Of a DNA stretch of 64,000 bases, positions 6,379 through 54,929 are shown piece by piece. The first letter of the stretch is position 1. Each line of letters starts with the position of its first letter. Origin of the DNA: Rickettsiales bacterium (GTDB taxonomy: Bacteria; Pseudomonadota; Alphaproteobacteria; Rs-D84); NCBI GenBank assembly GCA_031265235.1, contig JAISCX010000035.1:16839-80838 (forward strand). Reading direction: 5' to 3'. Position numbers and translations under genes: made by a program. The notes beneath the pieces are model-generated. The model was given only the letters and a program-made list of their open reading frames with translations, was not told where the DNA came from and searched no databases.

Positions 6379-6570
6379 GTTCGTGTCCGCGCCATTTTTT
6401 ATAGAGATTGAATCTCTTGCTTTTTTAAATTCTATGTATTAAACTTTCCAACGAGTCTGCAGGGATGCAGGATCGGGACCTTCAAAAGTCCATATAGAAG
6501 ACATTGTCCGCAAGGGCATTGCATCCGCTTGAACAATGGCGGCACGTAAGTGCCTTTTGTTGTTTATAGG

Positions 6571-6689
6571 CCCCGCCGAAAGGTCGGGGAGCTGTCGGTT
6601 ATAAAACAGGTTTTCCCGAAGGCCGATGGGATCATTTCTTCTGTATGATTTTTGAACTCCCCGACCGCCAATTCCCTTGGCGGTTTTTC
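6571..6689 (+). promoter_or_regulatory. attenuator-like leader: GNRA hairpin / antiterminator / intrinsic terminator immediately upstream of RBS+ATG of the 6713 gene
   Basis: Hairpin ccccgcc-gaaa-ggtcgggg. The segment ggtcggggag (6582-6591) is complementary to ctccccgacc (6657-6666), which overlaps the terminator accgccaa-ttccc-ttggcggt-ttttt (6663-6689). An AGGAG RBS and the ATG follow. Confidence 0.4.
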
Positions 6690-6712
6690 GTTGCTGAAAA
6701 ATAGGAGCAATC

Positions 6713-7840
6713 ATGAAGAAGGGCTTATACAGCAAATCGGTCATTTTCGGTCTGTCGGCATGCGCGCTGCTTTCGTCCCAAGAAGCGAAATCTGAAAATG
6801 CAGAAAAAGATTCCGTGCGATTGGTCGAATCTGTCGATAGCCTGACGTCGGCGGGGATCATAAGCTGTGCGGCGTCCGTTTTTTCCGTAAGTGAATCGCT
6901 GGCTGGCGACTTTCACGACATTGAAAAGTTTCTGGCGCGGATAAAATCCGACGGCCCGAAAATCAACCGCGATTCGCTGGCAAATCTTGAATTTTCGGAA
7001 ATTGCGAAATTTGTCGAAAGCGCGAAAAGGCGGCCGGCGCGCGTGGAAATCGAAACCGTTCCGATAAAAAGCGCCGATGATATGAAACGCCTGTTCGAAA
7101 CAGGATCCTTTGTCCAGGCCGGATACAATCAGGATATCAATATAATCGAGATAAACGTGCTGGCCGCGGATTTCAAGCCCGCGGAAAATCCCGGATTGTT
7201 CGCGCTGATCCAATCAATGAACGCGGAATTGCCGTTTCTGTTCGTTCACGAGAAAAAGCACGAATTCGACGCCGCGCGCAAGCGCCCGGAATTTTTGAAT
7301 TTCGATCGGCAAATGCCGGAATATGAGTTTTATTTTGAATGCGCCGGCTATGTTTCCGGGCTGCTTGCAAAGCGGCTGGCGCTTTTGCGCACGCGGGAAT
7401 TGCAAACGGCGGGGCCCATAGACAGCATTTCGTCCGGCGAAATCAGCCGCGACGAGGCGGACGCATTGGTCATGTCGATGATCAAATGGTTAAAGGAAAA
7501 CGGCGCGGACTATGCGCGCCGTCAGATTCCGGGAATGGTCGCGAAAGACGTCCGCGACGCGTTTGCGAATTTGAGAAAAAGCAAAGAGGCCCCGATTCTG
7601 TTTCAAGAACAGGTGCGCCGCCTGTTCCAATTTGAAACAGGAAATCTGCTGGATATTTGCGGACCGGAATTAAGAAAAACGCTGGCCCGCGAAATCGAAA
7701 GTCTGGCGAACGGCAAACGGCTGAAAAAAGATCTGGCGAAATTGTCCGCCCGCATTCCCGCCATGATTCAATTCATAGACCGCGCCCAACGCGCGCGTTT
7801 CGCATTTTATTATCAAAATCAAAAAGGAGATGAAAAATGA
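6713..7840 (+). CDS. hypothetical secreted protein (signal peptide MKKGLYSKSVIFGLSACALLSSQEA)
   Basis: 375-aa ORF with a good RBS (AGGAGCAATCATG). Its stop overlaps the next ATG. Confidence 0.65.
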   Translation: MKKGLYSKSVIFGLSACALLSSQEAKSENAEKDSVRLVESVDSLTSAGIISCAASVFSVSESLAGDFHDIEKFLARIKSDGPKINRDSLANLEFSEIAKFVESAKRRPARVEIETVPIKSADDMKRLFETGSFVQAGYNQDINIIEINVLAADFKPAENPGLFALIQSMNAELPFLFVHEKKHEFDAARKRPEFLNFDRQMPEYEFYFECAGYVSGLLAKRLALLRTRELQTAGPIDSISSGEISRDEADALVMSMIKWLKENGADYARRQIPGMVAKDVRDAFANLRKSKEAPILFQEQVRRLFQFETGNLLDICGPELRKTLAREIESLANGKRLKKDLAKLSARIPAMIQFIDRAQRARFAFYYQNQKGDEK

Positions 7841-8451
7841 AGACTGCTTTTGCGGCCGGTGCTTTGTGTGCGCTGGTATTATTGACGGAAACGGGGAATG
7901 CGTTTTATTGCGCCAACAGTATGACCACTGCTTTCGCGACGTATTGTTCCGGGCTGGGGGGGACGATATCCACGTTGGATAACGCAGAGTTTTCCAACGG
8001 GGGCCATTGCAGCTATGTATGCTTTTCCAACGCGGCCGAGAAGACCTCTGTCGAGTCCAAGAAGAACAACGCCACCGCGGCCACAGGAAGTTGCGGCAGC
8101 AATGCGAGTCCGGTTTACAGTAGTGGGGCGGTGATGACCACAAGCCCGGCGACATGCAATATCAGCGAAAACGTATGCGGCGGGCCCAACAGTCCGACGT
8201 ATTACAGTATAAACAGCGCGGTCAAACCGATATCTTCGTGCAAATGCAATGCCGGATACTGGGGGGCGACGTCCGTCCCGACAACCTGCACCAGGTGTCC
8301 GAAAATTTGCGACAACCCGTCCGGATCGGAAGTGTTCGGGACATCAACGGCCGGATCCACGGCACAAACTCAATGCCAGGCGCCCGCAGGAACACAATGC
8401 AAGGACGGCGCCGGCGATTATACATTTCAAGCCGCTTGCAGTTATCAATAG
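7837..8451 (+). CDS. cysteine-rich secreted protein (signal peptide; C-terminal CxxC-rich modules)
   Basis: 204 aa with the N-terminal signal MKTAFAAGALCALVLLTETGNA and many Cys in CxC/CxxC spacing. Translationally coupled to the 6713 gene. Confidence 0.6.
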   Translation: MKTAFAAGALCALVLLTETGNAFYCANSMTTAFATYCSGLGGTISTLDNAEFSNGGHCSYVCFSNAAEKTSVESKKNNATAATGSCGSNASPVYSSGAVMTTSPATCNISENVCGGPNSPTYYSINSAVKPISSCKCNAGYWGATSVPTTCTRCPKICDNPSGSEVFGTSTAGSTAQTQCQAPAGTQCKDGAGDYTFQAACSYQ

Positions 8452-13269: not shown

Positions 13270-13343
13270 GCCCGCATAGTATAATGGTAGAACAGGTCCT
13301 TGGTAAGGACCAGGCGCAAGTCCGATTCTTGCTGCGGGCACCA
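13270..13343 (+). tRNA. tRNA-Thr (anticodon GGT)
   Basis: Acceptor stem GCCCGCA/TGCGGGC, anticodon stem GGTCC/GGACC with loop TTGGTAA and T-arm GCAAG-TCCGATT-CTTGC. Discriminator A and an encoded CCA. One A-A mismatch in the D stem. Confidence 0.85.
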
Positions 13344-15407: not shown

Positions 15408-15631
15408 TTGCGTTTGCGTGATAATGCGTCAAATCGACGCAAAGACGGCCCCTCGTGTATTTCAATACACGTCGGGCCCGTTTTCATGCCACCTTGCCGC
15501 ATTCTGACGCAAACGCGTCATTTGTATGGTGTATTTTTTCATACTTGTATTTTTAACATATTCGGCATATAATCCAATCGGAATTTAACATTCCGGCAAC
15601 GGGGCCTGATAACCCTTAATACAATGAAATA

Positions 15632-15738
15632 CCCTGCCTAGGGCGGGAGAATGGCGAAATATCCAATACGCCATGCCATTTCCATTGTGTTAGTGGTATC
15701 AGTCTCCCGCCATCTTTTTCAAAGATGGTTTTTTTAAC
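15632..15738 (+). ncRNA. sRNA candidate 1 (stem-enclosed, ends in intrinsic terminator)
   Basis: GGGCGGGAGA...TCTCCCGCC is a long-range stem. The terminator is ccatcttt-ttc-aaagatgg followed by T7. Confidence 0.35.
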
Positions 15739-15745
15739 AAAAAAC

Positions 15746-15845
15746 TTGGGCAGGAGGCCGATGAAATATGTTGAATACATCGGGCTACGATCTTGGTAGA
15801 TTGAACCTCCTGCCACTTTTGATTTTCAAAGGTGGTTTTTTATAT
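15746..15845 (+). ncRNA. sRNA candidate 2 (paralogue of candidate 1, ends in intrinsic terminator)
   Basis: GGGCAGGAGG...CCTCCTGCC is the enclosing stem. It shares the GAAATAT...AATAC core with candidate 1. The terminator is ccacttttg-atttt-caaaggtgg followed by T6. Confidence 0.35.
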
Positions 15846-15863
15846 AACCCAAGGAAGGATTAA

Positions 15864-16034
15864 ATGTTTACAAAATTTGCAACATATAAAGAAGTCAGGG
15901 AAATGGTTGAAAACAATCTGCAAAATGATATTGCAATAGACTTTATCATGAAATATATTTTTGAGACCAGAAAAAGAATTAAAAATCTTTTAAAAGAATT
16001 GGAATCTTTGAAAGACCCAGAAAAAATCGATTAG
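15864..16034 (+). CDS. small hypothetical protein (56 aa; below ORF-track cutoff)
   Basis: ATG at 15864 preceded by an AAGGAAGG RBS at a spacing of 5 nt. Translation MFTKFATYKEVREMVENNLQ...KDPEKID. Confidence 0.4.
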   Translation: MFTKFATYKEVREMVENNLQNDIAIDFIMKYIFETRKRIKNLLKELESLKDPEKID

Positions 16035-19200: not shown

Positions 19201-21345
19201 ATGAAAAGCAAAGTATTTCAGCTTGAATCAAATTACAAGCCGGCGGGCGATCAGCCGGGTGCCATACGCGAATTGTCCGACGGTCTGAAAGACGGCGTTC
19301 GCGACCAGGTTCTGCTTGGCGTCACGGGTTCCGGCAAGACATTCACAATGGCAAGCGTTATCGCGGAAATGGACCGGCCTGCGTTAATTATGGCGCCGAA
19401 CAAGATTCTGGCCGCGCAATTATATACTGAAATGAAGGGATTTTTTCCAAACAATCATGTCGAATATTTTGTGTCATATTACGACTATTACCAGCCAGAG
19501 GCTTACGTTCCCACAACCGACACCTATATAGACAAGGACGCCAGCATAAACGACCAGCTGGACAGAATGCGTCATTCTGCCACGCGCGCCATGCTGGAAG
19601 AGCGCGATGTTGTCGTTGTATCATCAGTGTCCAGCATCTACGGGCTTGGGTCGCCGGAAACATATTCGGAAATGAAGGCCGTGTTCGCGGCCGGCGACAA
19701 GATTGGCATCCGCGATGTTGTCGACGCATTGGTGCGATTGCAATACAAACGCAACGACATCGGATTCAACCGCGGCGAATTCCGCGTCCGCGGCGATTCA
19801 TTGGATGTATTTCCGTCGCACAGTCAGGACCGCGGCTGGCGATTTTCATTCTTTGGCGATGAAATAGAAGACATTTATGAATTTGATGTTTTAACGGGGC
19901 AGAAAACGCGAATGATGGACAGGGCCGCGGTATATCCGAATACCCACTATGCTACGCCGCAGCTGTCAGTGGTTCAGGCCATACACGAAATCCGCCGTGA
20001 ATTGTCGGACCGGTTGGATTATTTCAAATCGAATATGAAATATTTGGAAGAACAGCGCCTGCGCGAACGGACAAACTTTGATATGGAAATGATGGAGGCG
20101 ACGGGCGCATGCCGCGGAATTGAAAACTATTCCAGGTATTTGTCGGGGAGAGGCCCCGGCGAACCGCCGCCAACGCTGTTCGAATATCTGCCAAAGGACG
20201 CCATTTTATTCGTGGATGAAAGCCACGTTTCCGTCCCGCAAATCGGCGGCATGGCGCGGGGCGACCGCGCACGGAAAGAAACGCTGTCACAGTATGGATT
20301 CAGGTTGCCCAGCGCGTTGGACAATCGCCCGCTGACATTCGAAGAATGGGACGGGTTCCGCCCGCAGACCATATTTGTGTCCGCGACGCCTAACGATTGG
20401 GAAATAGAACAGGCGCATGGCGTCGTCGTAGAACAAGTGATACGTCCGACGGGTCTGCTGGATCCCGAATGTTTCGTTCGTCCGACAAAAAATCAGGTTG
20501 ACGATTTATTGCACGAGATCAAAAAAATAGTATGTCATCCCGGCGCGCGCGCTGGCGCGAACCCGGGATCCGGTCATGACATGTGTGTAGAAAATGTTTC
20601 AAACAAGAAAAATCAAGCTAGTTCCCGACCCCACCAGGTCCCGGATAATTTGCCTGCGGCAAATTTCCGGGATGACACCTGTGATACGGGGCGTGTTCTC
20701 ATCACCACGCTTACCAAAAAGATGGCGGAACAGCTGACGGATTATCTTGTCGAAAATGGCGTCCGCGCGCGATATCTGCATTCCGATATAGAAACTTTGG
20801 AACGTATCGAATTGCTGCGGTCCTTGCGACTTGGCGAATTTGACGTTCTGGTCGGAATCAACCTGCTGCGCGAAGGATTGGATATTCCGGAATGCGAACT
20901 GGTCGCGATCATGGATGCGGACAAGGAAGGTTTTCTGCGTTCGGCGCGGTCACTGATCCAGACGATCGGCCGCGCGGCGCGCAACGTGAACGGCCGCGTG
21001 ATTCTGTATGCCGATAGAATAACAAACAGTATGAAGATTGCGCTGGACGAGACCGCGCGTCGCCGGGAAAAACAAAGCGCGTATAACAAAAAGCATAAGA
21101 TAACGCCCGTGACCACGACCAAGGCCGTATTTGCCGAAGTGTCCGAGTTTAAGAAAAAAACAGATGCAAGGAAACAATTTGTGTATAACGACGACGGGCT
21201 TATGACTGCGGACGATATCCGTAAAGAAATTGCAAAGCAGACGCGCCAGATGAAAAAGCATGCGGAAAATCTGGAATTCGAACAAGCCGGGGCCGCGCGC
21301 GACGCAATCCGGCGATTAGAGGACGATCTGTTGTTGTTGGGATAA
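19201..21345 (+). CDS. uvrB: excinuclease ABC subunit B (carries an in-frame palindromic-element insertion)
   Basis: [22 protein letters not shown]...GVTGSGKTF. Helicase motifs and the UvrB YY motif [15 protein letters not shown] are present. A 48-aa insert ([15 protein letters not shown]...) precedes [13 protein letters not shown]. Confidence 0.95.
20533..20677. mobile_element. RPE-like palindromic element, copy A (in-frame within uvrB)
   Basis: Terminal inverted repeats tgtcatcccgg...ccgggatgaca with two internal hairpin modules (GC-stem; tcccggataattt-hp-aaatttccggga). 145 bp, roughly a multiple of 3. Confidence 0.7.
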
Positions 21346-21349
21346 CTTA

Positions 21350-21385
21350 TAGATAATAGATAATAGATAGTAGATACTAGATATC
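21350..21385. repeat. TAGATA-hexamer repeat block (half element)
   Basis: tagataatagataatagatagtagatactagatatc directly after the uvrB stop. Confidence 0.6.
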
Positions 21386-21412
21386 GCTCTGTCCGATAAT
21401 AGGGGTGCTGCA

Positions 21413-21652
21413 AATGTGATTTGTGATCTGTGATTTGAAAATCCGCCGCGGTCTAAATTCCCCTCCTTGGGAGGGGTGTCGGCAAAGCCGACGGGGTGGG
21501 TGCGCAAAATCTGGGCATGCTTGTTTTCGTCTCTCACAAAGTCCGAATACCCACCCCGGACTGCTAGGGCAGCATAGCTGCCAAGCAGGCCGCCCCTCCT
21601 CCGGAGGGGAATGTCGACCGCGGCGGATTTTCAAATCACAGATCACAAATCA
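21413..21652. repeat. 240-bp structured palindromic element with 38-nt terminal inverted repeats (aatgtgatttgtgatctgtgatttgaaaatccgccgcggtc)
   Basis: Left arm at 21413-21452 and right arm at 21615-21652 as an exact reverse complement. The interior carries five or more hairpins. ORFs on both strands start MICDLKIRRG, a mirror artefact. Confidence 0.7.
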
Positions 21653-21674
21653 CGCTTCACCAATCACACTTCAC

Positions 21675-21702
21675 AAAAAATCCGGCATTCGCCGGATTTT
21701 TT
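21675..21702. terminator. bidirectional rho-independent terminator
   Basis: aaaaaatccggcattcgccggatttttt between convergent genes. Confidence 0.6.
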
Positions 21703-29917: not shown

Positions 29918-31171
29918 ATGTTTGCAAAGCTTGAAAAAAAAGTGGCTTTTCTATATCTGCGGGCCCGCGGCCGCGGATTCGGCAGCGTCATATCATGGGT
30001 GTCGCTGCTTGGCATCATGCTGGGGGTCGCGACGCTGGTCGTCGTTATGTCCGTTATGTCCGGATTTCATGACGCGCTGTTGTCACGCATTATCGGCATG
30101 AACGGACATGTCGTTGTATATCACCAGGACGGCGCGATAAAAGATTATGATTTTCTTATCGATAAAATAAAACAAAACAAAGTGGTCCGCGCGAATATGA
30201 TCGGCACAGTCCCCGTGTTAGAGGGCCAGGTCATGGTATCCGCGAACGGCACCAATTCCGGCGCCATGGTCCGCGGAATCCGCATGTCCGACCTGTCGCG
30301 TGTTTCCGGCGTCGGCACGAAAATATACGGAACTGAACTGAAAGACATAAAGGATGGCGAGCTGGTGATGGGAATGGCGCTGGCCCGCAATCTTAAACTT
30401 ACCATGAACGACACTGTGTCATTGATATCCGCGAACGGCGGGACGCCGACCGCGTTCGGCACCATGCCGCGGATGATGTCTTATCCCGTCCGTTCCACGT
30501 TCATGATGGGTATGTACGAATATGATTCCGGATATGTGTTTATGAATTTGGAAACGGCCCAGAAATACCTGAACGTGCCGGGCGGAGTGTCGCATATAGA
30601 CCTGTTCCTGAAAGACGCCGAACGGACGGCCGCGGTGCGCGACGCATTGCGCGATCTGTTGCCGGGCGGATTTATAGTGCGCGACTGGCGGGATCTGAAC
30701 CGCGGATTTGTCGGCGCGCTGCAAGTTGAATCAAACGTGATGTTCCTGATCCTTTTGCTGATCGTGATCGTCGCGGCGTTCAATATTGTATCAAGCCTTG
30801 TCATGCTGGTCAAAGACAAGTCGCGCGACATCGCGGTATTGCGCACGTTCGGGGTCCGGCGCAGCTCTATGATGAAGATATTCATTCTTGCCGGAACGTC
30901 AATCGGCGTTATCGGCGCGGTGTTCGGGACAATCTTGGGGCTGGTTATCGCCAAATATATTGAGCCGATCCGGAAATTTTTCCAGTGGGCGACGGGCCGC
31001 GATTTATTCCCGGCTGAATTATATTACCTGTCGGAACTGCCGTCCAAGATTGATCCAATATCGGTTGTCGGAATCGCGGTTGTCGCGGTCGCGCTGGCAT
31101 TCTTGGCGACGCTGTATCCCGCGTGGCGCGCGGCAAGGCTGGACCCGGTAGAGGTGTTAAGGAATGAATAA
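29918..31171 (+). CDS. lolE: lipoprotein-releasing system transmembrane subunit LolC/LolE (FtsX-like permease)
   Basis: 417 aa with an N-terminal TM, a large periplasmic loop and a C-terminal FtsX 3-TM bundle. Adjacent to lolD. Confidence 0.85.
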   Translation: MFAKLEKKVAFLYLRARGRGFGSVISWVSLLGIMLGVATLVVVMSVMSGFHDALLSRIIGMNGHVVVYHQDGAIKDYDFLIDKIKQNKVVRANMIGTVPVLEGQVMVSANGTNSGAMVRGIRMSDLSRVSGVGTKIYGTELKDIKDGELVMGMALARNLKLTMNDTVSLISANGGTPTAFGTMPRMMSYPVRSTFMMGMYEYDSGYVFMNLETAQKYLNVPGGVSHIDLFLKDAERTAAVRDALRDLLPGGFIVRDWRDLNRGFVGALQVESNVMFLILLLIVIVAAFNIVSSLVMLVKDKSRDIAVLRTFGVRRSSMMKIFILAGTSIGVIGAVFGTILGLVIAKYIEPIRKFFQWATGRDLFPAELYYLSELPSKIDPISVVGIAVVAVALAFLATLYPAWRAARLDPVEVLRNE

Positions 31172-31175
31172 AATT

Positions 31176-31294
31176 TAGATACTAGATACTGGATACTAGA
31201 TATTAGATATTAGTTTTGAACGCACTGAGAATTTATTGCGCCATCCGAACCAATATCTAGAATCTAATATCTAGAATCTAGTATCTAGTATCTA
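31176..31294. repeat. TAGATA-hexamer palindromic element (full, two inverted arms around 40-nt core)
   Basis: tagatactagatactggatactagatattagatattag ... ctaatatctagaatctaatatctagaatctagtatctagtatcta. Confidence 0.7.
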
Positions 31295-32583: not shown

Positions 32584-32604
32584 AACCAAGCTTTTTGTTG
32601 TCGC

Positions 32605-32678
32605 GGGCGTAGTCCAATGGTAGAATGCAAGCCTTCCAAGCTCGAGACGCGGGTTCGATTCCCGCCGCCCGCACCACC
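32605..32678 (+). tRNA. tRNA-Gly (anticodon TCC)
   Basis: Acceptor GCGGGCG/CGCCCGC, anticodon loop CTTCCAA and T-arm GCGGG-TTCGATT-CCCGC with an encoded CCA. Very similar to E. coli tRNA-Gly(UCC). Confidence 0.9.
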
Positions 32679-33097: not shown

Positions 33098-33235
33098 AGC
33101 CATCTATCCACGCCCACCACGTATTACAGACCTGTGAAAAACAGGTCTTTTTGTTTAGATTCATATACTCTTGAATGAGTTCTAATCTAGATTTTTCAAA
33201 GAAATGTTGATTTTTAGCCAGTTTTGAACTATTAT
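33098..33235. repeat. cassette-boundary repeat unit, copy 1 (starts with tRNA-Tyr 3'-end-like ccatctatccacgcccaccac)
   Basis: Shares ccaccacNtattacag-hairpin-tttttgtttagattNNtatactNttg...gagttc...ccagtttNgaactatt with copies at 34027 and 35120. Confidence 0.5.
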
Positions 33236-34026: not shown

Positions 34027-34185
34027 TTCTTGCGGTGAATCAGTTCGAAACTTGTCGAAAGTCTTCCACCACTTATTACAGGTCGCAGAGAATGCGACCT
34101 TTTTGTTTAGATTTGTATACTTTTGGCTGAGTTCGAAGCTTATGTTTTGAAAAATGGCTAAAAATAAGCCAGTTTCGAACTATTT
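34027..34185. repeat. cassette-boundary repeat unit, copy 2
   Basis: gttcgaaacttgtcgaaagtcttccaccacttattacag-gtcgcagagaatgcgacc-tttttgtttagatttgtatacttttggctgagttcgaagc... Homologous to 33098-33235. Confidence 0.5.
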
Positions 34186-38429: not shown

Positions 38430-41222
38430 GTGTCGGCGAATAACATTTTTTGCGCAAGCAACCCGGCAAAGATTGTCGACGCGCTGTGGCAGGTTCTGAC
38501 AAATAAAATCTCGGCGCGTGAAAGCGCGACGGATGATTTTTCCAACGATATAATTTTTTTGCCCAGCCGCCGCGCCGTCGGAACCGTTGAAAGGATGATT
38601 GCCGAAAAGACGGGCGCGGCCGTATTGCTGCCGCGGCTTGTCGCGCTTGGGGAAGAAGCCGAAGATGACGGGCCGCAAGAAGATAAATCTGAAAAAGGCG
38701 GCCCGGGCGCGCCGGTATCGAATCTTGAACGCGCGGCTGTCCTGGCAAAAATGCTGACCGCGCACATGGACGGCGGAATAGCCGGGACACTGCCGGTTGC
38801 GAAAGATCTGGTTCGGACGATGGATTATCTGGAAAACGAAAGGAACGCGGACCGGAAAACAGAAATAAACTGGTCTGAATTGGTTTGCGAGAAATACGCC
38901 GTGCATTTCCGGGACAAGGCGCGGTTCTTGGATTTGGCATGCAGGGCTTTGCCCCTTGTATTTCCAGGAAGAGAGACTGTCGCGCAAAAACGCAACAAGG
39001 ACGTTCGCGGCTGGATCGAATATCTGAATAAGCACAAATCACGAATAATTGTATGCGGATCAACCGGCTCGGTGCCCGCGACTGCGGACCTGATGGAATA
39101 TATCGCGGGGCGCGCTAATGGATATATTATTCTTCCTGGAAAGATAAACGAGATCCGAGATACGTTGTGCGAGATCCGAGATACAAATCCGTATTATTCT
39201 GAAATGAAGTTTCTTGAACGGATTTGTGTCATGCCAACTGATGTTCAAACGATTGATGTTGGCGAATCCGCCATAGGTTTTTTCAATTCAGCTTTTGATA
39301 ATAATACAAATCACAGATCACAAATAACAAATCACGACGCGCGTTTCACGCGCGTCGACTGTGCCCGCGAAGCGGAAGAAATGGAGACTGTCGCCGAAAT
39401 CGCAAAGGACGCCGCATCAAGCGGCAAGACCGTTCTGATCGTATCCCCGGACAAGGCCGCGGCGCAGCGGCTGCGGGAATCATTGATTATGCGATCCGTG
39501 GAATTTGACTTTTCCATCGGGATGTCCGGCGGATCGACAAAGCTGGGAAGACTTGTTTTGAACATGCTGGATGAGGGAAAAGGGAAAAGGGATGGGGGAA
39601 AAGGATATGTGCGGGACATTTGCGCTGAATACAAAAAAACGGGCGATTTGTTTGGGGCCGTCCAGAATATGGTTGAAGATTATGTGTCATCCCGGGCGCC
39701 GCTTTGCGGCGACCCGGTATCTTGTCAGGACCAGGGACTAGAAGATGTTCAAAATAACGAAGATTCCGATTATCTCCAGAATGACAAGATCCCGGGTTCC
39801 GCTTCGCGGCCCCGGGATGACACAAATCGCCACTCACAAATCACCCATCACGATATAACATCCGAAGAATCTCTGGCGGTTTGGGACGCCGTTCGCGAAG
39901 TTTCGGATATCATAAAAAATAACAGGCTTGAACTGTCAAAGCCCGATTTGCGCGGACTGGTCGCGGAAGCGTTAGATACGGTGAATATCAGGCCGCCGGG
40001 AAAGGAAGGCTGTCCCGTCTGCATTCTTGGCACAATCGAATCGCGAATGCAGACGGCGGACGTCGTGATTTTAACCGGGCTTAATGAAAACATGTTTCCG
40101 GCGACGGGTTATGAAAATCCCTGGCTGCCGCGGCGCGTATGCGACGCGCTGGGCATGCCGCCGCCCGAACGAAAAGTGTCTTTGATGGCGATGGATTTTA
40201 TTACGCTTTCCTGCGGGGGGGATGTTTATTGGACGCGGTCAAAGACATCGGGCGGATATGACACGACGGAATCGCGATTTCTGTCGCGGGTAAGTGTGAA
40301 AGAAAACAAGGGCAAGGAAATTCTTATTGATGACGGTTCCGAATGGCTTGCGCGGGTTCGCGCCCGCGACAGTGTGCCGCTGCGTCCTTTGGATTATTTA
40401 GCGCCAAAACCAAACGCCGATTGGTCGGATGTTTTTGTGACGGAATTGGAACTGCTGGTTCATAATCCGTATGCTTTTTATGCCAGACATATATTGCGCC
40501 TGAGACCATCGCCGGATCCGTGGGATGACGCATCCGCGATTGATTTCGGAAATATCGTGCACGAGGCGATAAAGGAATTGACGATATCCGAAAAGGACAC
40601 GCAATGTCGCGACATTATCGAAATACTTAAACAGAAAGCGAAAGAAAAGCTGGAACCCGGCAGCATTCTGTTTCATTTCTGGGATGCGCGCTTTAAAGAA
40701 ATGGCGCCGTTGGTAAAAGAATTTATAGACGAGGCTAAAAGCGACGACGTTGTGTGGTCTGCCGCGGAAGACGCGGCCACGGGCGTTGTTGAAATCGCGG
40801 GCCGAAATGTTCGCGCCAAGGCGGATTGCGTTTATGTAAAGAGGGAAGAGGGAAGAGGGAAGAGGGAAGAAATCGGTTGTGCCATAGATATAAAAACCGG
40901 AAGGGTGCCTTCGAATTCTCAATTAGATAACGGCATGATGCCGCAGCTGCCGTTAGAGGCATATATGCTGAAAAATAAAAAGTTTACCGGGCAAAACGTT
41001 TTGCCCGCGCGCGTCGTTATGAAGTTCCTGCAACTTTCCCGCGGAAAATGCGGCGTGATTGAATATGCGGGCGAAGACTTGGATAATAAAATCGGCGCGG
41101 CGATCGCCAAGACGACCGAATTGTTCAATATGTATTCCGCGGGCGGCAAGGCGTATGAGTATCGCGAAACAGGGGACGATAAATACAAGGCATACGACGA
41201 TCTGGCGCGGGCGTGGGATTAG
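38430..41222 (+). CDS. addB: double-strand break repair nuclease AddB-like (alphaproteobacterial type) riddled with in-frame repeat insertions
   Basis: IIFLPSRRAV...LLPRLVALG resembles the AddB N-terminus and TVLIVSPDKAAAQRLRESL is AddB-like. The C-terminal block AKADCVYV...AIDIKTGR is PD-(D/E)XK-like. Inserts include EGKGKRDGGKG, KREEGRGKREE and an RPE-like copy. Confidence 0.5.
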   Translation: MSANNIFCASNPAKIVDALWQVLTNKISARESATDDFSNDIIFLPSRRAVGTVERMIAEKTGAAVLLPRLVALGEEAEDDGPQEDKSEKGGPGAPVSNLERAAVLAKMLTAHMDGGIAGTLPVAKDLVRTMDYLENERNADRKTEINWSELVCEKYAVHFRDKARFLDLACRALPLVFPGRETVAQKRNKDVRGWIEYLNKHKSRIIVCGSTGSVPATADLMEYIAGRANGYIILPGKINEIRDTLCEIRDTNPYYSEMKFLERICVMPTDVQTIDVGESAIGFFNSAFDNNTNHRSQITNHDARFTRVDCAREAEEMETVAEIAKDAASSGKTVLIVSPDKAAAQRLRESLIMRSVEFDFSIGMSGGSTKLGRLVLNMLDEGKGKRDGGKGYVRDICAEYKKTGDLFGAVQNMVEDYVSSRAPLCGDPVSCQDQGLEDVQNNEDSDYLQNDKIPGSASRPRDDTNRHSQITHHDITSEESLAVWDAVREVSDIIKNNRLELSKPDLRGLVAEALDTVNIRPPGKEGCPVCILGTIESRMQTADVVILTGLNENMFPATGYENPWLPRRVCDALGMPPPERKVSLMAMDFITLSCGGDVYWTRSKTSGGYDTTESRFLSRVSVKENKGKEILIDDGSEWLARVRARDSVPLRPLDYLAPKPNADWSDVFVTELELLVHNPYAFYARHILRLRPSPDPWDDASAIDFGNIVHEAIKELTISEKDTQCRDIIEILKQKAKEKLEPGSILFHFWDARFKEMAPLVKEFIDEAKSDDVVWSAAEDAATGVVEIAGRNVRAKADCVYVKREEGRGKREEIGCAIDIKTGRVPSNSQLDNGMMPQLPLEAYMLKNKKFTGQNVLPARVVMKFLQLSRGKCGVIEYAGEDLDNKIGAAIAKTTELFNMYSAGGKAYEYRETGDDKYKAYDDLARAWD
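39686..39821. mobile_element. RPE-like palindromic element, copy B (in-frame within addB)
   Basis: tgtcatcccgggcgccgctttgcggcgacccgg...cccgggttccgcttcgcggccccgggatgaca, the same architecture as copies A and C. Confidence 0.7.
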
Positions 41223-47495: not shown

Positions 47496-47606
47496 AGCAA
47501 ATTATCATTGCGTGCGGACAGAATTCGCGAAGCAATTTTTTAAATTCGGGAATTAAGGGACTCTCTTGAATCCGCGAAATTGCTTTGTCGCCTGCGGCCC
47601 ATCGCA

Positions 47607-48104
47607 ATGACAGCCATAATTATGAACAAAGCACAGGATTTTAACAAACGCAAAGGCCGTCCGCAGACGCTGGGCGGGGCCTTTGGCGATCTTTTGCGAA
47701 AGTTTGGACGACATTCGTCCGATGCGGATTTGGTGGCCAGATGGGTTGATATCATGGGGCCGGAAATTGCAGGAATCGCGGATTTGGTTTCGATATCAAA
47801 AATTAAAAGCAATGTGTCATCCCGGGCGCGGCAGAGCCGCGACCCGGGACCTGGTCATAGCCAGGGAATAGAAAATGTTTCCGATAGAAGAAACATTAAT
47901 AATCCCAATTCCCACCAGATCCCGGATAATTTTTCGCATTCTGCGAAAAATTTCCGGGATGACACCCTTGGCCGCGTAATGACCGTGCGGGCAAAGAATC
48001 CGGCTGCGGCGCTGGCCCTTTCCTATAAGGTTGCCGATATCCGCGCGGCCGCAAACAAGTATTTCGGATACGACGCCGTCGTGCGCGTGATCGTGAAAAA
48101 ATGA
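47607..48104 (+). CDS. DUF721 (DciA-like) family protein with in-frame palindromic-element insertion (start uncertain)
   Basis: C-terminal YFGYDAVVRVIVKK and N-terminal ...LVARWVDIMGPEIAGIADLVSI fit DUF721. The middle ~50 aa are encoded by RPE-like copy C. Confidence 0.5.
   Translation: MTAIIMNKAQDFNKRKGRPQTLGGAFGDLLRKFGRHSSDADLVARWVDIMGPEIAGIADLVSISKIKSNVSSRARQSRDPGPGHSQGIENVSDRRNINNPNSHQIPDNFSHSAKNFRDDTLGRVMTVRAKNPAAALALSYKVADIRAAANKYFGYDAVVRVIVKK
47816..47964. mobile_element. RPE-like palindromic element, copy C (in-frame within DUF721 gene)
   Basis: tgtcatcccgggcgcggcagagccgcgacccggga...cccggataatttttcgcattctgcgaaaaatttccgggatgaca. Confidence 0.7.
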
Positions 48105-48251
48105 ATCCGCCGCTGATTTTTAGATTAACGTTTAATATATCTTTATTTTTCTGACATTTCTGTTATAATTAACTTGTCGCAGGGTGTTCCCGCGGCGGGG
48201 GATGATTGCCCCTTTATTGGCGTCTATGAAGACGAAAAACTCCAGCCCGAC

Positions 48252-48345
48252 GGTTGGAGGGTTCGCGTTATACATTGAAAGCGCGACACAATTTCCAATA
48301 AATTGCAATCAACCTCCAACCGCCAATGTTTTGGTGGTTTTTTGT
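48252..48345 (+). promoter_or_regulatory. attenuator-like leader (paralogue of 6571-6689) upstream of large Cys-rich secreted protein gene
   Basis: ggttggagg (48252-60) is complementary to cctccaacc (48313-21), which overlaps the terminator aaccgccaa-tgtt-ttggtggtt-tttttt (48318-48345). The terminator core accgccaat is shared with the 6663 terminator. Confidence 0.4.
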
Positions 48346-48360
48346 ATAAAAGAATATATC

Positions 48361-50886
48361 ATGAAAAAAATTTTGATATTTTCAACGTTGTGCATGACGC
48401 TTGCTTTCGGCGCGCGCGCCGACGACTGCATCATGGACCAGTTTCTGGGTACAAAGATTTCCTGCAACGACAGCTGTGCCGGCGATTGGGAAATGAAATG
48501 GGGCGCGGTGTCATTCGGTCAATGCCCGTACGGCCAGATGCGGGAATGCTATGAGCAGCGCCTGCTTATCGGCGTCAACGACAAATGGACGGCGTGCAAG
48601 AACCGTGGCAGCTCTGGCCGCAGTTTTGTATGTCCCAATGCGCCGGACGAATTGCCCCTATATGCAACGACCAAAGGCGTTGCTAACATGCTTGACAAGG
48701 CTCACCCGACGACTTGGTGGGACGGTACTGTATCTTATAACAGGACGTATCTCGCGCTGACCAAAGCGAACAATAATAACTGGTGCTGGACATTTGAATG
48801 CCCGTCGGACAAGCCGTGGCATCTTTGGCTTGACGGCAGAAATGAGTGCGTCGCCGCATGCGGAGACGCGGGCGCCTATGCCCCTTATGGCGAACACACT
48901 TGCGGCCATTGCAGACAGAATTCTGACTATAGACTTGCAGACGGCAAATGCATAAGAAGACAAAACTACGACTATAAAGGATGCTATCAAAGAGTTAATG
49001 CTGTGCTGAAATCCGTCAGTCTTGGCGAAGACGTCAACGGTTTCTGCATACCGTCGGAAATTGATCCTAAAATGTCCCGTTATGCCATAATGGTGGGGGG
49101 CCAGCTTTGGCAAATACCGCTTTCGATAGAAAAAGAAAATGATATGTTGATGGCGTTAGGATGGACAGATTATAAAAAAGATGCCCCATGGTGCTGGGCT
49201 GAAGAAAAGATGAAGGAACCGAAAAAAAACGGTTTCAAAAAAATCCCAAGATGCAAAAAAAGTACAAGTTCCGCCGCATCGGCCGCGATGGTCGCAGGCA
49301 ACTGCATAACCGATCCGTTCTCCCAGAAAAACATCTGTTGTAATAATGACACCCTTTACAGCACGTCTTTTTACGGCTGCGAATATCCAAATCTGACATG
49401 GTGCGGACAAGACGGCAAATGGTCGGATTGCGGCATTGCGACCGTCGGTATAATTGGGACGGACGGAAAAGACATTGCCGGGATATGCACGATTGATAAC
49501 CTGAATACAGATTTGTATGAGTATGAAAAGCACCAGAATGGCAAGGCGAGTTTTTCATTCAAGAACAACAAACTTATGCATAATGTCTGCTGGGATTCGG
49601 TGCAGCCCAAGGCCGAAAGCAATATGTACCGGAGGTCTGGAACTCTATCGGATGGAACCGATTGTGAAGCAAAATGGGCGAACAAAGACAAAACCAAGTG
49701 CGTTGATCGTTGCGAAGATTCTATTATTTACGCATCAGATATTGATTCCGAACAAAAATTTGTCTGGGTGGCAAAAGATGACTGCGCTGGATTTTACTGC
49801 GCCGACGAAGCTGGAAATCCGGATCCGAATCTTGTTTGGGATTATTTTGTTGAAAAGCATAACAATAAAATAAAGTGCACGTCAAAAGATAGAACAGATA
49901 ACTCGCAACAGTCGGGAGAATCCACCAAGAAAGAACAGGAACAGAGGGAAACCGAAGAAACGCGGCTAGCAAATGAACGTGAATCGGCGCGTCTGGATCG
50001 AGAACGCGAGCAAAAACTCGCCGCCATAGAAACCATGATAACATCGCACACTAAAACAATGTCAGATATCAAATCCGCGCATGCGGGCGACAAGGTCAGC
50101 GCCTGGAAGACTGCGGACGGGAATTTCAACGGCGCGCGCTTGGCGTCCGATTCCATCGCGGGCGCCGCAATCGGCACGCTGGGCGGCGTCATCACGTTCA
50201 ACATCATAAAGAAAAACCAAATAAACAATGGATTCGACGACCTGGATTGCGTTGTCGGGGGTGCGGGAACGGCCAATGTAGGGGCGCCCCTACAAATAAC
50301 TATCAGCTGGGGGGACGTGTTCATGATATCCGGACCCACAACCAAGAAAGACTGCGAAGCGGCGTCAAACGGCCGGAACAATATCTTTGTCTGGGCGGCA
50401 AAGACCGGCACGGGCGCGGATTATGCGACTTTACGCGAAGACATGAAAGACACGGCGAATAATGCGTGCTGGGTCCGTGTTGATATCATATCGAAAGATC
50501 CAAACATCAATACGGATCTGATGAAGCCACGATGGTTTATGACGGGCGCCCGGGAAACATGCGGCGGTTGGCTGGACGAGAATTTTGTGCGGCAAAAGAT
50601 ATTGGACGCGAAAAAGACAAAGCGGACATGGGGGACTGTGGCTGGCGCGGTTGGGGGCGCGGCGGTTGGCGTCGGCACCATGGAATTGTTTGGGAACAAG
50701 CTGATCGGCGGCAAGGTGATGGGCCAGAAAGCATTAAAGGAAGAAGAGCTGTTGCGGAGCCAGATATTGGCAGGTCCCGGCGGTGCGGCGGAATGGACAC
50801 GGTATGAATCCGCAAAAGCAGGACTGGCCGCCGCATGCAATGAATTGCGCGCAGCGGGCGGGAAATTGCCGAAAGAGTGCGAATGA
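48361..50886 (+). CDS. large secreted cysteine-rich protein with Glu/Arg-rich coiled segment and Gly-rich C-terminus (hypothetical surface/effector-like)
   Basis: Signal MKKILIFSTLCMTLAFGARA, then more than 40 Cys in the N-terminal 550 aa. TKKEQEQRETEETRLANERESARLDREREQKLAA is a charged helix, and the C-terminus is a GxxxG-rich hydrophobic segment. Confidence 0.6.
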   Translation: MKKILIFSTLCMTLAFGARADDCIMDQFLGTKISCNDSCAGDWEMKWGAVSFGQCPYGQMRECYEQRLLIGVNDKWTACKNRGSSGRSFVCPNAPDELPLYATTKGVANMLDKAHPTTWWDGTVSYNRTYLALTKANNNNWCWTFECPSDKPWHLWLDGRNECVAACGDAGAYAPYGEHTCGHCRQNSDYRLADGKCIRRQNYDYKGCYQRVNAVLKSVSLGEDVNGFCIPSEIDPKMSRYAIMVGGQLWQIPLSIEKENDMLMALGWTDYKKDAPWCWAEEKMKEPKKNGFKKIPRCKKSTSSAASAAMVAGNCITDPFSQKNICCNNDTLYSTSFYGCEYPNLTWCGQDGKWSDCGIATVGIIGTDGKDIAGICTIDNLNTDLYEYEKHQNGKASFSFKNNKLMHNVCWDSVQPKAESNMYRRSGTLSDGTDCEAKWANKDKTKCVDRCEDSIIYASDIDSEQKFVWVAKDDCAGFYCADEAGNPDPNLVWDYFVEKHNNKIKCTSKDRTDNSQQSGESTKKEQEQRETEETRLANERESARLDREREQKLAAIETMITSHTKTMSDIKSAHAGDKVSAWKTADGNFNGARLASDSIAGAAIGTLGGVITFNIIKKNQINNGFDDLDCVVGGAGTANVGAPLQITISWGDVFMISGPTTKKDCEAASNGRNNIFVWAAKTGTGADYATLREDMKDTANNACWVRVDIISKDPNINTDLMKPRWFMTGARETCGGWLDENFVRQKILDAKKTKRTWGTVAGAVGGAAVGVGTMELFGNKLIGGKVMGQKALKEEELLRSQILAGPGGAAEWTRYESAKAGLAAACNELRAAGGKLPKECE

Positions 50887-52031: not shown

Positions 52032-53102
52032 TTATTTTTCTTCCGGATCGTCCGATGGGCCGACGGTCATCTCTTCGGCGATGCCGGCCGATTTCTCTAC
52101 GATTTTTTTCAACAGCTCTTCCGCGACATTCGGATTGTTTTTCAGCCATTCGCGTGCGTTCGCCTCGCCCTGGCCGATGCGTTCGGAATTATAAGAATAG
52201 AACGAACCGGCTTTTTCGATCAGGTTCATCTTGACCCCCATGTCAAGGATTTCGCTGACGCGGCTGATGCCTTCGCCATACATGATCTTAAAGTCCACGG
52301 TGCGGAATGGCGGCGCGACCTTGTTCTTTACAACCTTTACCCGCGTTTCGTTGCCGACCACGTTTTCCTTGTCTTTTATCGCGCCGATGCGACGTATGTC
52401 GATGCGCACGGACGCATAGAATTTCAGCGCGTTCCCGCCGCTTGTCGTTTCAGGATTGCCGAACATCACGCCGATTTTCATGCGGATCTGATTGATGAAG
52501 ATCAAAAGCGCGTTGCTTCTGGACACGCTGCCCGCCAGTTTTTTCAATGCCTGGGACATCAGGCGCGCGGTTGTTCCCATGAATGTGTCGCCGATGTTGC
52601 CTTCTATTTCGGCGCGCGGCACCAGGGCTGCGACGCTGTCCACGACCACCACGTCCACCGCGCCCGATTTGATCAGCGTGTCCGCGATTTCCAAAGCCTG
52701 TTCGCCGGAATCAGGTTGGGATACGATCAGATTTTTCACATCCACGCCAAGCTTGTGCGCATAGTTCGGATCCAAAGCGTTTTCCGCGTCGATATATGCG
52801 GCCGTGCCGCCAAGCTTTTGCGCCTCGGCGACCGCATGCAGCGCGAGCGTTGTTTTCCCGGACGATTCCGGCCCGTATATTTCGACAATGCGTCCGCGCG
52901 GATAACCGCCGATGCCAAGCGCAATGTCAAGGCCCAGCGATCCGCTCGACACTGCGTCGATATTCTGCGTGGCGCCGTCGCCCATTGTCATAATGGCGTC
53001 TTTTCCGAATTCTTTCTTTATCTGGGCAAGCGCGGATTCCAGCGCCGGATTTGTGTTCGCCGCGCTTGATGCCGCCGCTTTTTCTTCGATTTTCTTTGCC
53101 AT
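52032..53102 (-). CDS. recA: recombinase RecA
   Basis: Walker [13 protein letters not shown], the L2 loop and the C-terminal acidic tail DDPEEK. Confidence 0.97.
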
Positions 53103-53161
53103 AAAAAACTCCTTTTCCTTGTGGAAAAAGCATAGGAAAAAAACGTGGGGAAAGCAAGGGA

Positions 53162-53283
53162 ATAGATAATAGATAGTAGATACTAGATATTAGATATCGA
53201 TTTTTGGCAGACATGGCAAGCATCAAAATCTGGAAAGTCCACATCAGTTCAACTGTGAACGAATATCTAATATCTACTATCTC
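53162..53283. repeat. TAGATA-hexamer palindromic element (full)
   Basis: atagataatagatagtagatactagatattagatatcga ... cgaatatctaatatctactatct flanking a ~75-nt core. Confidence 0.7.
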
Positions 53284-54464: not shown

Positions 54465-54589
54465 TTTTTCTAGTCTTCCTCGTTGATTGAGATAATATCA
54501 GAAACTGTGGAATTTGGAAAGTGGAATTGTAGTGGCGCGCATGCGCGCAATTTTTCTTGACTTATAAAGGATTCGTGTTAGATTGCGCT

Positions 54590-54785
54590 AGCCGTGAAAA
54601 TGGTCAGGGGCCTAACAAATCCTTGAACACGCGATATGTCTTATTCTTGCTTGCAATAAGGCGTATGGGGCTGTGCTTTCCGACTAACTCCTATATGGTC
54701 GGGGTGACCGGGCTATACAACAATGCGTTGCATAAAAGCCCGGTGGTCAAGCGTGTTTGACTTTGTTAGCCCCCGGCCGCCAATC
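54590..54785 (+). ncRNA. structured ncRNA candidate (strand and identity uncertain)
   Basis: Long closing helix ggggcctaacaaa.../...tttgttagccccc, with internal hairpins cttatt/aataag, ccgac/gtcgg and accgggct/agcccggt (perfect 8 bp). No ORF. Confidence 0.3.
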
Positions 54786-54929
54786 TGAGTATTATGCTTT
54801 TGCAAGCCGCAATATGGATTGGCTGTTTCAATTGTAGCAAATTTTTAGAAATATTTCCCTAAGAACAAAATCCGCTTGATTTATAACCTGCGATCAGAGA
54901 TGATCGGTTTGATAAAAAAAGGATTATCC

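Follow-up and report, generated by a model that had tools for sequence, protein, structure and literature searches.

What kind of element is the structured non-coding stretch that precedes a gene for a 375-aa signal-peptide protein in a Rickettsiales bacterium of the uncultured order Rs-D84? The DNA in question, 64,000 nt of contig JAISCX010000035.1 (16,839-80,838, forward strand), was analysed over its full length and is referred to as the window; all leader features given below lie on its forward strand. An earlier note had described the stretch at 6571-6689 (leader 1) and a second stretch ahead of a gene for a Cys-rich secreted protein (leader 2) as a pair of paralogous transcription attenuators. 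This attenuator reading is partly supported, its architecture having been borne out by comparison and extended: instead of a pair, the two leaders represent a clade-wide multi-copy family with three more copies in the window, and they are interpreted here, with moderate confidence, as cis-acting conformational switches operating on an intrinsic terminator, of the type of c4 and sRNA-Xcc1 (sRNA, small RNA).

All pairings that had been listed for the two leaders were found, and both terminators are flagged by a terminator scan. The hairpin ccccgcc-gaaa-ggtcgggg of leader 1 (6571-6589) comprises 7 bp and a bulged U, its 5' strand CCCCGCC (6571-6577), termed anti-P1 as the candidate anti-antiterminator, having GGUCGGGG as its partner; a longer pairing joins GGUCGGGGAG (6582-6591) to CUCCCCGACC (6657-6666); and the intrinsic terminator at 6664-6689 is made up of ACCGCCAA (6664-6671), the loop UUCCC and UUGGCGGU (6677-6684), followed by U5, with its first 3 nt (ACC) being the last 3 nt of the 3' strand of the longer pairing. 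Shortly downstream, as had been claimed, stand the Shine-Dalgarno (SD) sequence AGGAG (6703-6707) and the ATG (6713) of the 375-aa protein gene, which together with its SD occupies 6703-7840. The pairings do lie within 6571-6689, but the conserved leader is much longer and begins near position 6453, directly behind a promoter at 6417-6445 (-35 TTGCTT 6417-6422, 17-nt spacer, -10 TAAACT 6440-6445), which was not called by a simple promoter scan and which aligns with the conserved CTTG..N17..TATAAT upstream of the whole family; transcription probably starts near 6453. The added 5' part contains the terminal hairpin H1 (6453-6474, GAGUCUGC-AGGGAU-GCAGGAUC, with a conserved AGGGAU loop), a decoy strand at 6474-6509 composed of the hairpin H2 (GGGAC..GUCC) and the linker after it, whose partner lies at 6630-6661, and the GC hairpin H5 (6541-6554, GGCAC-GUAA-GUGCC, then a U-rich linker). 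Compensatory changes were observed by RNAalifold in H5, where alignment columns 149-151/158 pair with 168-171, and, among 27 leaders, in H1 (CCAC/GUGG, CCAA/UUGG, CUGC/GCAG and CAAC/GUUG). H5 was set aside as a first terminator, since the terminator scan flags it in leader 1 but many relatives have no U-rich tail. The folding energy of a 141-nt piece of leader 1 is weak (z-score -0.99), whereas that of the whole transcript, 6453-6715, gives a z-score of -4.44 with none of 200 shuffles as good.

The longer pairing is the closing stem P1 of a P1/P2/P3 three-way junction, because 6582-6674 aligns to the entire Rfam model RF02221, sRNA-Xcc1 (35.6 bits, E 1e-4; model length 87 nt, gathering cut-off 53 bits). 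The statement that no known motif is evident therefore has to be given up, albeit for a match below threshold. At gathering score, Rfam 15 returned only two tRNAs from the whole window (13270-13340 and 32603-32673) and no riboswitch or leader family, and the RF02221 match came from a permissive scan. The scores of the family on this model, 28-50 bits, and those of its relatives in other metagenome-assembled genomes (MAGs), 38.6-49.6 bits, stay below the cut-off, while the alignments span model positions 1-87 of 87 with the AUACAA..GAA loop present. The junction core of leader 1 (6582-6666) consists of P1 (6582-6591/6657-6666), P2 (6592-6600/6621-6629) with the conserved loop UAUAAAACAG..GAA, P3 (6630-6635/6645-6650) and the junction strand J3/1 (6651-6656). 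In leader 2, an extended -10 promoter element (TGTTATAAT, 48161-48169) is followed by the decoy strand CGGGGGAUGAUUGCCCCUUUAUUGGC (48196-48221, partner 48294-48318), the anti-P1 CUCCAGCC (ctccagcc, 48240-48247, pairing with ggttggag), a core with a short P2 at 48252-48321 (P1, ggttggagg with cctccaacc, 48252-48260/48313-48321; P2 48262-48269/48280-48286; P3 48287-48292/48300-48305) and a terminator at 48318-48345 (AACCGCCAA-UGUU-UUGGUGGUU, stem 48318-48339, then U6) that overlaps the P1 3' strand, and the 841-aa Cys-rich signal-peptide protein gene runs from its ATG at 48361 to 50886. The folding energy of leader 2 is good (z-score -3.49), and the permissive scan found no Rfam match in it, RF02221 included.

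To collect relatives, a degenerate pattern drawn from the parts common to the copies at 6582, 48252 and 54697 was searched in a species-representative genome collection, with 3 matches in the window against 0.00 expected and 30 loci in other genomes. These 30 loci belong to about 27 MAGs from the gut (rumen, chicken, deer, human) that are labelled Alphaproteobacteria, Rickettsiales or "Candidatus Enterousia", and the leaders are conserved in related genomes. Enterousia is a member of the order Rs-D84, widespread uncultured gut symbionts with little-known biology and genomes of about 0.75-1.0 Mb (PMC12306168). A single locus is labelled otherwise, L019 (CAVGNU010000002.1), binned as Bacteroides fragilis, and its contig is probably misbinned; its leader and GT2 gene are almost identical to those of the alphaproteobacterial MAG loci L011, L015 and L024. 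The same pattern had zero matches in 2.9 million viral contigs, and a phage origin of the leaders was set aside. RNAalifold recovered the structure only partly from raw MAFFT alignments, hence the structure was set by hand and then refined through a covariance model, R1, made from 30 distinct sequences. The covariance search that had been proposed yielded 42 copies at E <= 1e-3 in the window and the 30 loci retrieved by the pattern, exactly five of them in the window (6582, 15642, 15749, 48252 and 54697, with filters off), and the supposed homology of leaders 1 and 2 was confirmed, as both match R1 (95.8 and 52.3 bits). Two types were distinguished, type A with P1 GGUCGGGG and an inner hairpin in P2, to which leader 1 and the copy at 54697 belong, and type B, whose P2 is short and whose P1 is GGUUGGAG or some other sequence, which includes leader 2 and a tandem pair (15642/15749); leader length across the family is 190-340 nt.

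Each copy, that of leader 2 included, folds alone into a three-way junction. On the model-based alignment, 94.1% of cells are standard pairs versus 78.6% in shuffles, a percentage flattered by an alignment that was fitted to the structure, although the same pairs were already visible in the raw MAFFT alignment; 27 of the 32 pairs have changed on both sides, and none of 500 shuffles reaches the observed values. When the partners are slid by 1-3 columns, pairing drops to 31-52%. G-U pairs are abundant and conserved, for instance as GU in the basal pairs of P3, where 21 and 26 sequences have it, and model scores on the reverse strand are only 15-21 bits; the feature is therefore one of a sense-strand RNA. 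The P2 loop, UAUA[C/A]AAYA..GAA, is the only invariant single-stranded motif. A pairing of this loop with the U-rich linker before anti-P1 was considered from partial complementarity seen by eye and was dropped, no covariation being seen.

The hairpin, antiterminator and terminator segments of the earlier note are all conserved and co-varying, while the GNRA loop that it had named is not kept in relatives, whose anti-P1 loops measure 3-17 nt and are free in sequence. For the anti-P1 hairpin, RNAalifold run on 27 upstream regions gave an independent prediction, with columns 194-200 paired to 214-220, and divergent copies, those of type B among them, rebuild the pairing with other sequences (CUCCAAC/GGUUGGAG, CCUGCC/GGCGGG and UUCCUGAC/GUCGGGAA). 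The full 8-bp terminator stem is 91.5% paired with its overlap included, and a U tract (at least 5 U in the 8 nt past the stem) is present in 37 of the 42 copies. The overlap of the terminator 5' arm with the antiterminator 3' strand is likewise conserved but amounts to only 3 nt; its three pairs (columns 104-106, common to P1 and the terminator) are kept in at least 97% of sequences, and covariation links column 104 to column 3 of P1 as well as to column 128 of the terminator, the two columns with which it pairs. In local folds that include about 45 nt upstream, P1-forced and terminator-forced states are near-isoenergetic (-1.2 +/- 4.1 kcal/mol).

The position of these elements relative to the gene was also conserved. 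A same-strand open reading frame (ORF) follows 42 of the 42 copies and in most starts 20-45 nt past the terminator (the distance is longer for 15642, the upstream member of the tandem, and for 54697), and each copy has a promoter upstream, the conserved motif CTTG..N17..TATAAT sitting about 7 nt 5' of H1. Because of this promoter position the gene can be transcribed only through the leader, and because the gap between terminator and start codon is too short for a promoter, expression must pass the terminator. The family thus displays a terminator between promoter and start codon, a conserved antiterminator that shares nucleotides with it and a competing anti-antiterminator helix. As in riboswitch platforms, T-box leaders and protein-dependent attenuators, mutually exclusive conserved helices would decide whether the terminator between promoter and start codon forms, and P1 closes a structured domain that serves as the candidate antiterminator; unlike in such leaders, antiterminator and terminator overlap by only 3 nt, a second, long-range helix competes, and there is no leader peptide. 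Ribosome-mediated attenuation of the trp type, through a leader peptide, would account for the four-segment layout of 1:2, 2:3 and 3:4 pairings, but it is hardly credible here, since the 41 leaders examined share no conserved ATG, frame, peptide or SD, in accordance with the earlier note, and 4 of them have no ATG ORF of at least 8 codons at all.

The four-segment architecture is present as described, but it misses a larger component, a long-range helix of 20-29 bp between the upstream decoy (H2 and linker) and the segment formed by P3, J3/1 and the P1 3' strand, first seen when the complete transcript of leader 1 was folded. This helix co-varies, the variable P3 loop matching the variable linker and J3/1 matching the H2 loop (for example UUUUCUUAA/UAAGAAA, UUUGAGAA/UCUCAAG, UUACCAA/UGGUAG and CUUUGUUAG/CUAACAAA). 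In an all-against-all RNAduplex test of 41 copies, each upstream segment being compared with non-cognate leaders, no partner surpasses the own decoy in 34 copies, and in the others it holds rank 1-3, with duplexes of -21 to -31 kcal/mol; the exception is the second tandem copy (15749), which has no 5' domain of its own. The leader 1 duplex reaches -29.7 kcal/mol versus -15.7 +/- 2.9 for non-cognate partners (rank 0 of 27) and is present in the minimum free energy (MFE) structure of the whole leader, and that of leader 2 reaches -26.1 versus -10.9 +/- 2.0 kcal/mol (rank 0 of 40), with all 20 long-range pairs contained in its MFE structure. Across full leaders, the long-range state lies below the junction state in energy in 38 of 41 copies (mean -6.9 kcal/mol), and in 28 of 41 copies 70% or more of the long-range pairs are present in the unconstrained MFE structure, which has a near-full P1 (at least 8 pairs) in one copy only. 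The terminator retains on average 6.1 of its 8 pairs in the long-range state with the anti-P1 hairpin, against 3.2 in the junction state. Because of these full-leader energies, the predicted ground state consists of the decoy helix, the anti-P1 hairpin and the full terminator.

High copy number, near-identical cores at different loci, a common promoter and the many downstream genes that derive from one Cys-rich family could also be expected of a non-regulatory repeat, that is, a mobile or gene-converted promoter-plus-UTR (untranslated region) cassette or a DNA inverted repeat that does not switch. Such a repeat is very improbable, however, as five helices and also the long-range helix show compensatory changes, conserved G-U pairs are confined to a single strand with reverse-strand scores of only 15-21 bits, the element always points towards the ORF, unrelated genes (GT2, RgpF, CDGSH, HTH) also follow it, and the nucleotides of the P3 and P1 3' strands each keep two or three alternative partners.

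The switch that is favoured here would be laid out from its own sigma-70-type promoter through the 5' hairpins, anti-P1, the junction and the terminator to the start codon. In the ON state, the P3/J3-1/P1-3' segment would pair with the 5' strands of P1 and P3 and form the junction, which would leave 5 of the 8 bp of the terminator stem and move it off the U tract, permitting read-through; in the OFF state, the decoy helix would take that segment while anti-P1 captures the P1 5' strand, and the full terminator would form. OFF would be the thermodynamic ground state, and the junction, being higher in energy, would need kinetics or a factor. Several points weigh against this interpretation. What has been computed is the family, its structures, the exclusive pairings and the energies, from which we infer premature termination and its regulation; the pattern and the model used for collection presuppose part of the structure, so that pairing percentages are somewhat inflated; five copies (four related loci and 54697 in the window) have no U tract; and neither a sensor pocket nor a trans-acting factor was identified. 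The terminator-P1 overlap of only 3 nt is by itself a weak lock, because a P1 shortened to 7 bp coexists with the full terminator in constrained folds, and for this reason exclusivity depends on kinetics together with the anti-P1 and long-range pairings. The core may, moreover, work chiefly as an sRNA, because its Xanthomonas relative accumulates as a discrete 88-nt RNA and is described as trans-acting (PMC2996969).

The relationship to sRNA-Xcc1 is a distant one. Both have the P1/P2/P3 junction, the P2 loop AUACAAYA...GAA enclosing a small hairpin, and a J3/1 that is rich in U and ends in AA. Unlike sRNA-Xcc1, the family has its inner P2 hairpin flipped (GGG..CCC instead of CCC..GGG), carries a canonical U-tract terminator overlapping P1 plus an anti-P1 hairpin 5' of P1, and is chromosomal and multi-copy in Rs-D84 Alphaproteobacteria rather than carried by integrons, plasmids or phages; sRNA-Xcc1 is treated in the literature as a trans-acting sRNA and not as a leader. 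In Xanthomonas campestris, sRNA-Xcc1 was defined as an 88-nt RNA by Northern blots and RACE (rapid amplification of cDNA ends) and described as trans-acting (PMC2996969); it lies upstream of symE in Xanthomonas integron cassettes (10.1101/2025.06.18.660453) and is multi-copy in Xylella (PMC12189769). Three plasmid-collection records with 68.8-72.6 bits on RF02221 were used as bona fide sRNA-Xcc1 controls. Two of the three lie about 45-50 nt before a same-strand coding sequence (for a BRO-family protein and a hypothetical protein), all three have an upstream complement to P3/J3-1/P1-3' (3-7 of 200 shuffles being as good), and the ribosome-binding region repeats the target in two of the three (CCAAGCAGAGG; UUGAAC..UCACAAAGGAGG).

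A related comparison concerns the C4 RNAs (RF01695, with IsrK and the Acinetobacter Group 1 sRNAs), which also have three stems and are embedded in the leader of the operon that they control. The c4 RNA is excised from that leader, a complementary upstream site is also present, and ant is controlled by way of icd translation and Rho. The c4 RNA of phages P1 and P7 has a P1/P2/P3 structure, is processed by RNase P at a GGW motif and occludes a ribosome-binding site (RBS) with its loops (PMC5320573). In the present family, P1 starts with GGT in 39 and GGC in 2 of the 42 copies (41 GGW-like starts), GCCA follows P1 in 34 of the 42, the single strands have an a1b1-like complement at an upstream site and a weaker candidate one, a2b2-like, in the RBS region, and, as C4 can be (PMC5320573), the element is multi-copy in one genome. 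Unlike in C4, the upstream complement is a 20-29-bp helix that dissolves the junction, and an intrinsic terminator and anti-P1 are integrated. RF01695 gave no match for the window copies at E <= 10 or for the relatives' loci at E <= 1. The copies are filed under neither RF02221 nor RF01695, because they fall below the threshold of the former and do not match the C4 model; judged from sequence, they would be relatives of sRNA-Xcc1 and c4 built on the same principle, with the intrinsic terminator and anti-P1 added.

In sequence the P3/J3-1/P1-3' segment resembles an anti-Shine-Dalgarno and shows complementarity to the ribosome-binding region, and because of this a c4-like antisense layer is possible. 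The best downstream duplex almost always begins at the SD GGGGA and spans the AUG (-7 to -26 kcal/mol), and its cognate ranks are skewed low (median 0.20, Kolmogorov-Smirnov p about 1e-4, with copies that are not independent), while many copies are no better than non-cognate ones. A cognate-specific pairing of the core with the RBS region was thus left as a weak signal. In its full form, the c4-type alternative holds that the junction is a leader-embedded antisense RNA released by termination and possibly cut by RNase P at the GGW start of P1, that its P3 loop and J3-1 repress the RBS region of its own or sister mRNAs, that the decoy is an a1b1-like mimic and that the terminator is mainly the 3' end of the sRNA. 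This account, which is compatible with the attenuator switch, is rather doubtful, though it draws on the three-stem RNA within the leader with its GGW-like P1 start and GCCA, on the upstream complement, on the SD-to-AUG duplex, on the detection of sRNA-Xcc1 as an 88-nt RNA on Northern blots (PMC2996969) and on bona fide sRNA-Xcc1, whose RBS carries 8-11-nt matches to the P3 region. Against it, RF01695 gave no match even at E <= 10, the downstream complementarity falls well short of the upstream one in strength and specificity (z -0.8 versus -2.8) and largely involves the P1 3' strand buried in the junction, the processing is a prediction only, and the conserved 3-nt terminator overlap and the anti-P1 hairpin are left unexplained. 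Within the attenuator switch, the same segment could pair with the ribosome-binding region as a second layer, acting on translation.

Multi-copy regulons of surface proteins are a property of c-di-GMP (cyclic di-guanosine monophosphate) riboswitches, which the present set of genes resembles. A metabolite or second-messenger riboswitch, in which the junction is the aptamer and a ligand stabilises P1 and prevents termination, would further agree with the classic layout of a P1-closed junction directly 5' of and overlapping a terminator, with the near-isoenergetic ON and OFF states, and with the 15642/15749 tandem, which recalls tandem riboswitches. It is improbable, given that J3/1 and the P3 loop are not conserved and co-vary with the decoy, that the P2 loop is the sole invariant unpaired motif and P2 is reduced to a simple hairpin in type B, that the downstream genes have no common metabolic theme and that no Rfam riboswitch matches. 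The trigger of the switch would rather be a factor acting in trans, with either the H1/H2 module or the invariant P2 loop as its recognition site, and would favour the junction. A protein or RNA is our guess over a metabolite, and is favoured over a small ligand because the junction strand and P3 loop co-vary with the decoy and the genes lack a metabolic theme. Control of the CsrA type, exerted on the AGGGAU loop of H1 and on the GGGGA SD, was considered and stays a speculation; tblastn in 293 kb of sequence found no CsrA, Hfq, NusG, RfaH or ProQ, which is uninformative at that scope.

The downstream genes agree with the claim that secreted proteins are involved, as most of the proteins carry signal peptides, about two-thirds combining a signal peptide with many cysteines. 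Pfam domains among them include YadA anchor, OMP beta-barrel, ephrin-receptor-like Cys repeats, carboxypeptidase-regulatory-like domains and ankyrin repeats, together with GT2 and RgpF glycosyltransferases, a CDGSH protein and an HTH protein, with no metabolic theme in common. The 375-aa protein has a homologue of 27% identity at locus L022 of another MAG, preceded by the same leader, so that the RNA is far better conserved than its protein. The second gene of the leader 1 operon, 3' of the 375-aa gene, encodes a Cys-rich secreted protein (7837-8451) that ends in ...QCQAPAGTQCKDGAGDYTFQAACSYQ; this matches a C-terminal motif, C[YR][IL]PxGT...G.[FY].[FY]T..C.Y, of the Cys-rich secreted proteins at L001, L004, L012, L013, L014, L021, L026 and L030, one of the motif-bearing proteins matching Pfam Ephrin_rec_like, and the motif may be a sorting or anchoring signal. 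At L006, L008, L017 and L020, a stem without U tract (GGUCAACAUUU) follows P1, the same leader stands before three different genes, and the SD CGGGGAU is complementary to the P1 3' strand CUCCCCG; this subgroup may represent a translation-only form of the switch.

The three further copies in the window comprise the tandem pair and a third leader. The tandem leader has a promoter at 15545-15573 (-35 TTGTAT 15545, 17-nt spacer, -10 TATAAT 15568) and a decoy plus anti-P1 region at 15600-15638 (decoy 15600-15631; anti-P1 CCUGCC 15633-15638; duplex -28.3 versus -19.4 +/- 3.6 kcal/mol, rank 1 of 40), followed by copy 1 at 15642-15739 (core 15642-15711, terminator 15709-15729 and U7; R1 38.4 bits, E 6e-7 with filters off) and copy 2 at 15749-15846 (core 15749-15814, terminator 15812-15836 and U6; R1 29.6 bits, E 6e-5). 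The copies are spaced 107 nt start to start, with one terminator each and with decoy and anti-P1 only in the first; neither matches RF02221, and a 56-aa ORF (15864-16034) preceded by the SD AAGGAAGGA lies 3' of the second. The third leader, located by searching the common P1-3'/GCCAAU string, has a promoter at 54557-54584 (-35 TTGACT 54557, -10 TAGATT 54579), a decoy at 54606-54636 (duplex -30.5 versus -19.6 +/- 3.0 kcal/mol, rank 0 of 40), the anti-P1 CCGAC (54680-54684) and a junction core at 54697-54778 (R1 62.6 bits; RF02221 28.3 bits over 54698-54786). This core is followed by a long hairpin (54779-54823) that is not a canonical terminator and by the gene of a CDGSH Fe-S protein by Pfam (ATG 54931).

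Other repeated sequences were observed elsewhere in the window. A 68-nt repeat with a GC-rich hairpin (CCCGGGCGCCGC..GCGGCGACCCGG) occurs in three copies that are 70-81% identical (20561-20600, 39682-39751 and 47812-47881), the third inside a long ORF (47580-48104) that matches DciA in its C-terminal part only; the real start of the DciA-matching gene is probably downstream of the repeat. Intergenic tandem arrays of the 7-nt unit TAGATAN are found at 21350-21391, at 31162-31217 and, closely upstream of recA (52032-53102, minus strand), at 53149-53204, and CAAATCA/CACAAAT-like 7-nt arrays at 21618-21688, 39307-39349 and 39823-39865; judged by their repeat pattern, these arrays could be protein-binding iterons. 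In addition, an 87-nt segment with a terminator-like hairpin and T run, then conserved AT-rich sequence, is duplicated 952 nt apart with 72% identity (33114-33200 and 34066-34152).

The leaders thus add a new and abundant variant to the leader RNAs of the c4/sRNA-Xcc1 kind. It is a tentative and bolder suggestion, one we hold as possible rather than probable, that the whole sRNA-Xcc1 family, which Rfam lists as a trans-acting sRNA gene, is the core of a cis leader switch (decoy, junction, RBS or terminator), expanded to dozens of copies in the reduced Rs-D84 genomes (about 0.8-1 Mb) as an RNA regulon of secreted and surface proteins that is read by one P2-loop-recognising factor; leaders terminated prematurely may then also cross-talk in trans. 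With 5 copies per 64 kb, a rough extrapolation gives 35-70 per genome. A strand with three conserved exclusive partners is attractive for studies of co-transcriptional folding, and sRNA-Xcc1, for which annotations exist across many proteobacterial genomes, plasmids and prophages but no mechanism is known, would gain a testable one comprising a leader, a decoy and an RBS complement. If the interpretation is true, a single RNA module would head the candidates for a global cell-surface control in Rs-D84, covering secreted, Cys-rich, adhesin-like and envelope-synthesis genes.

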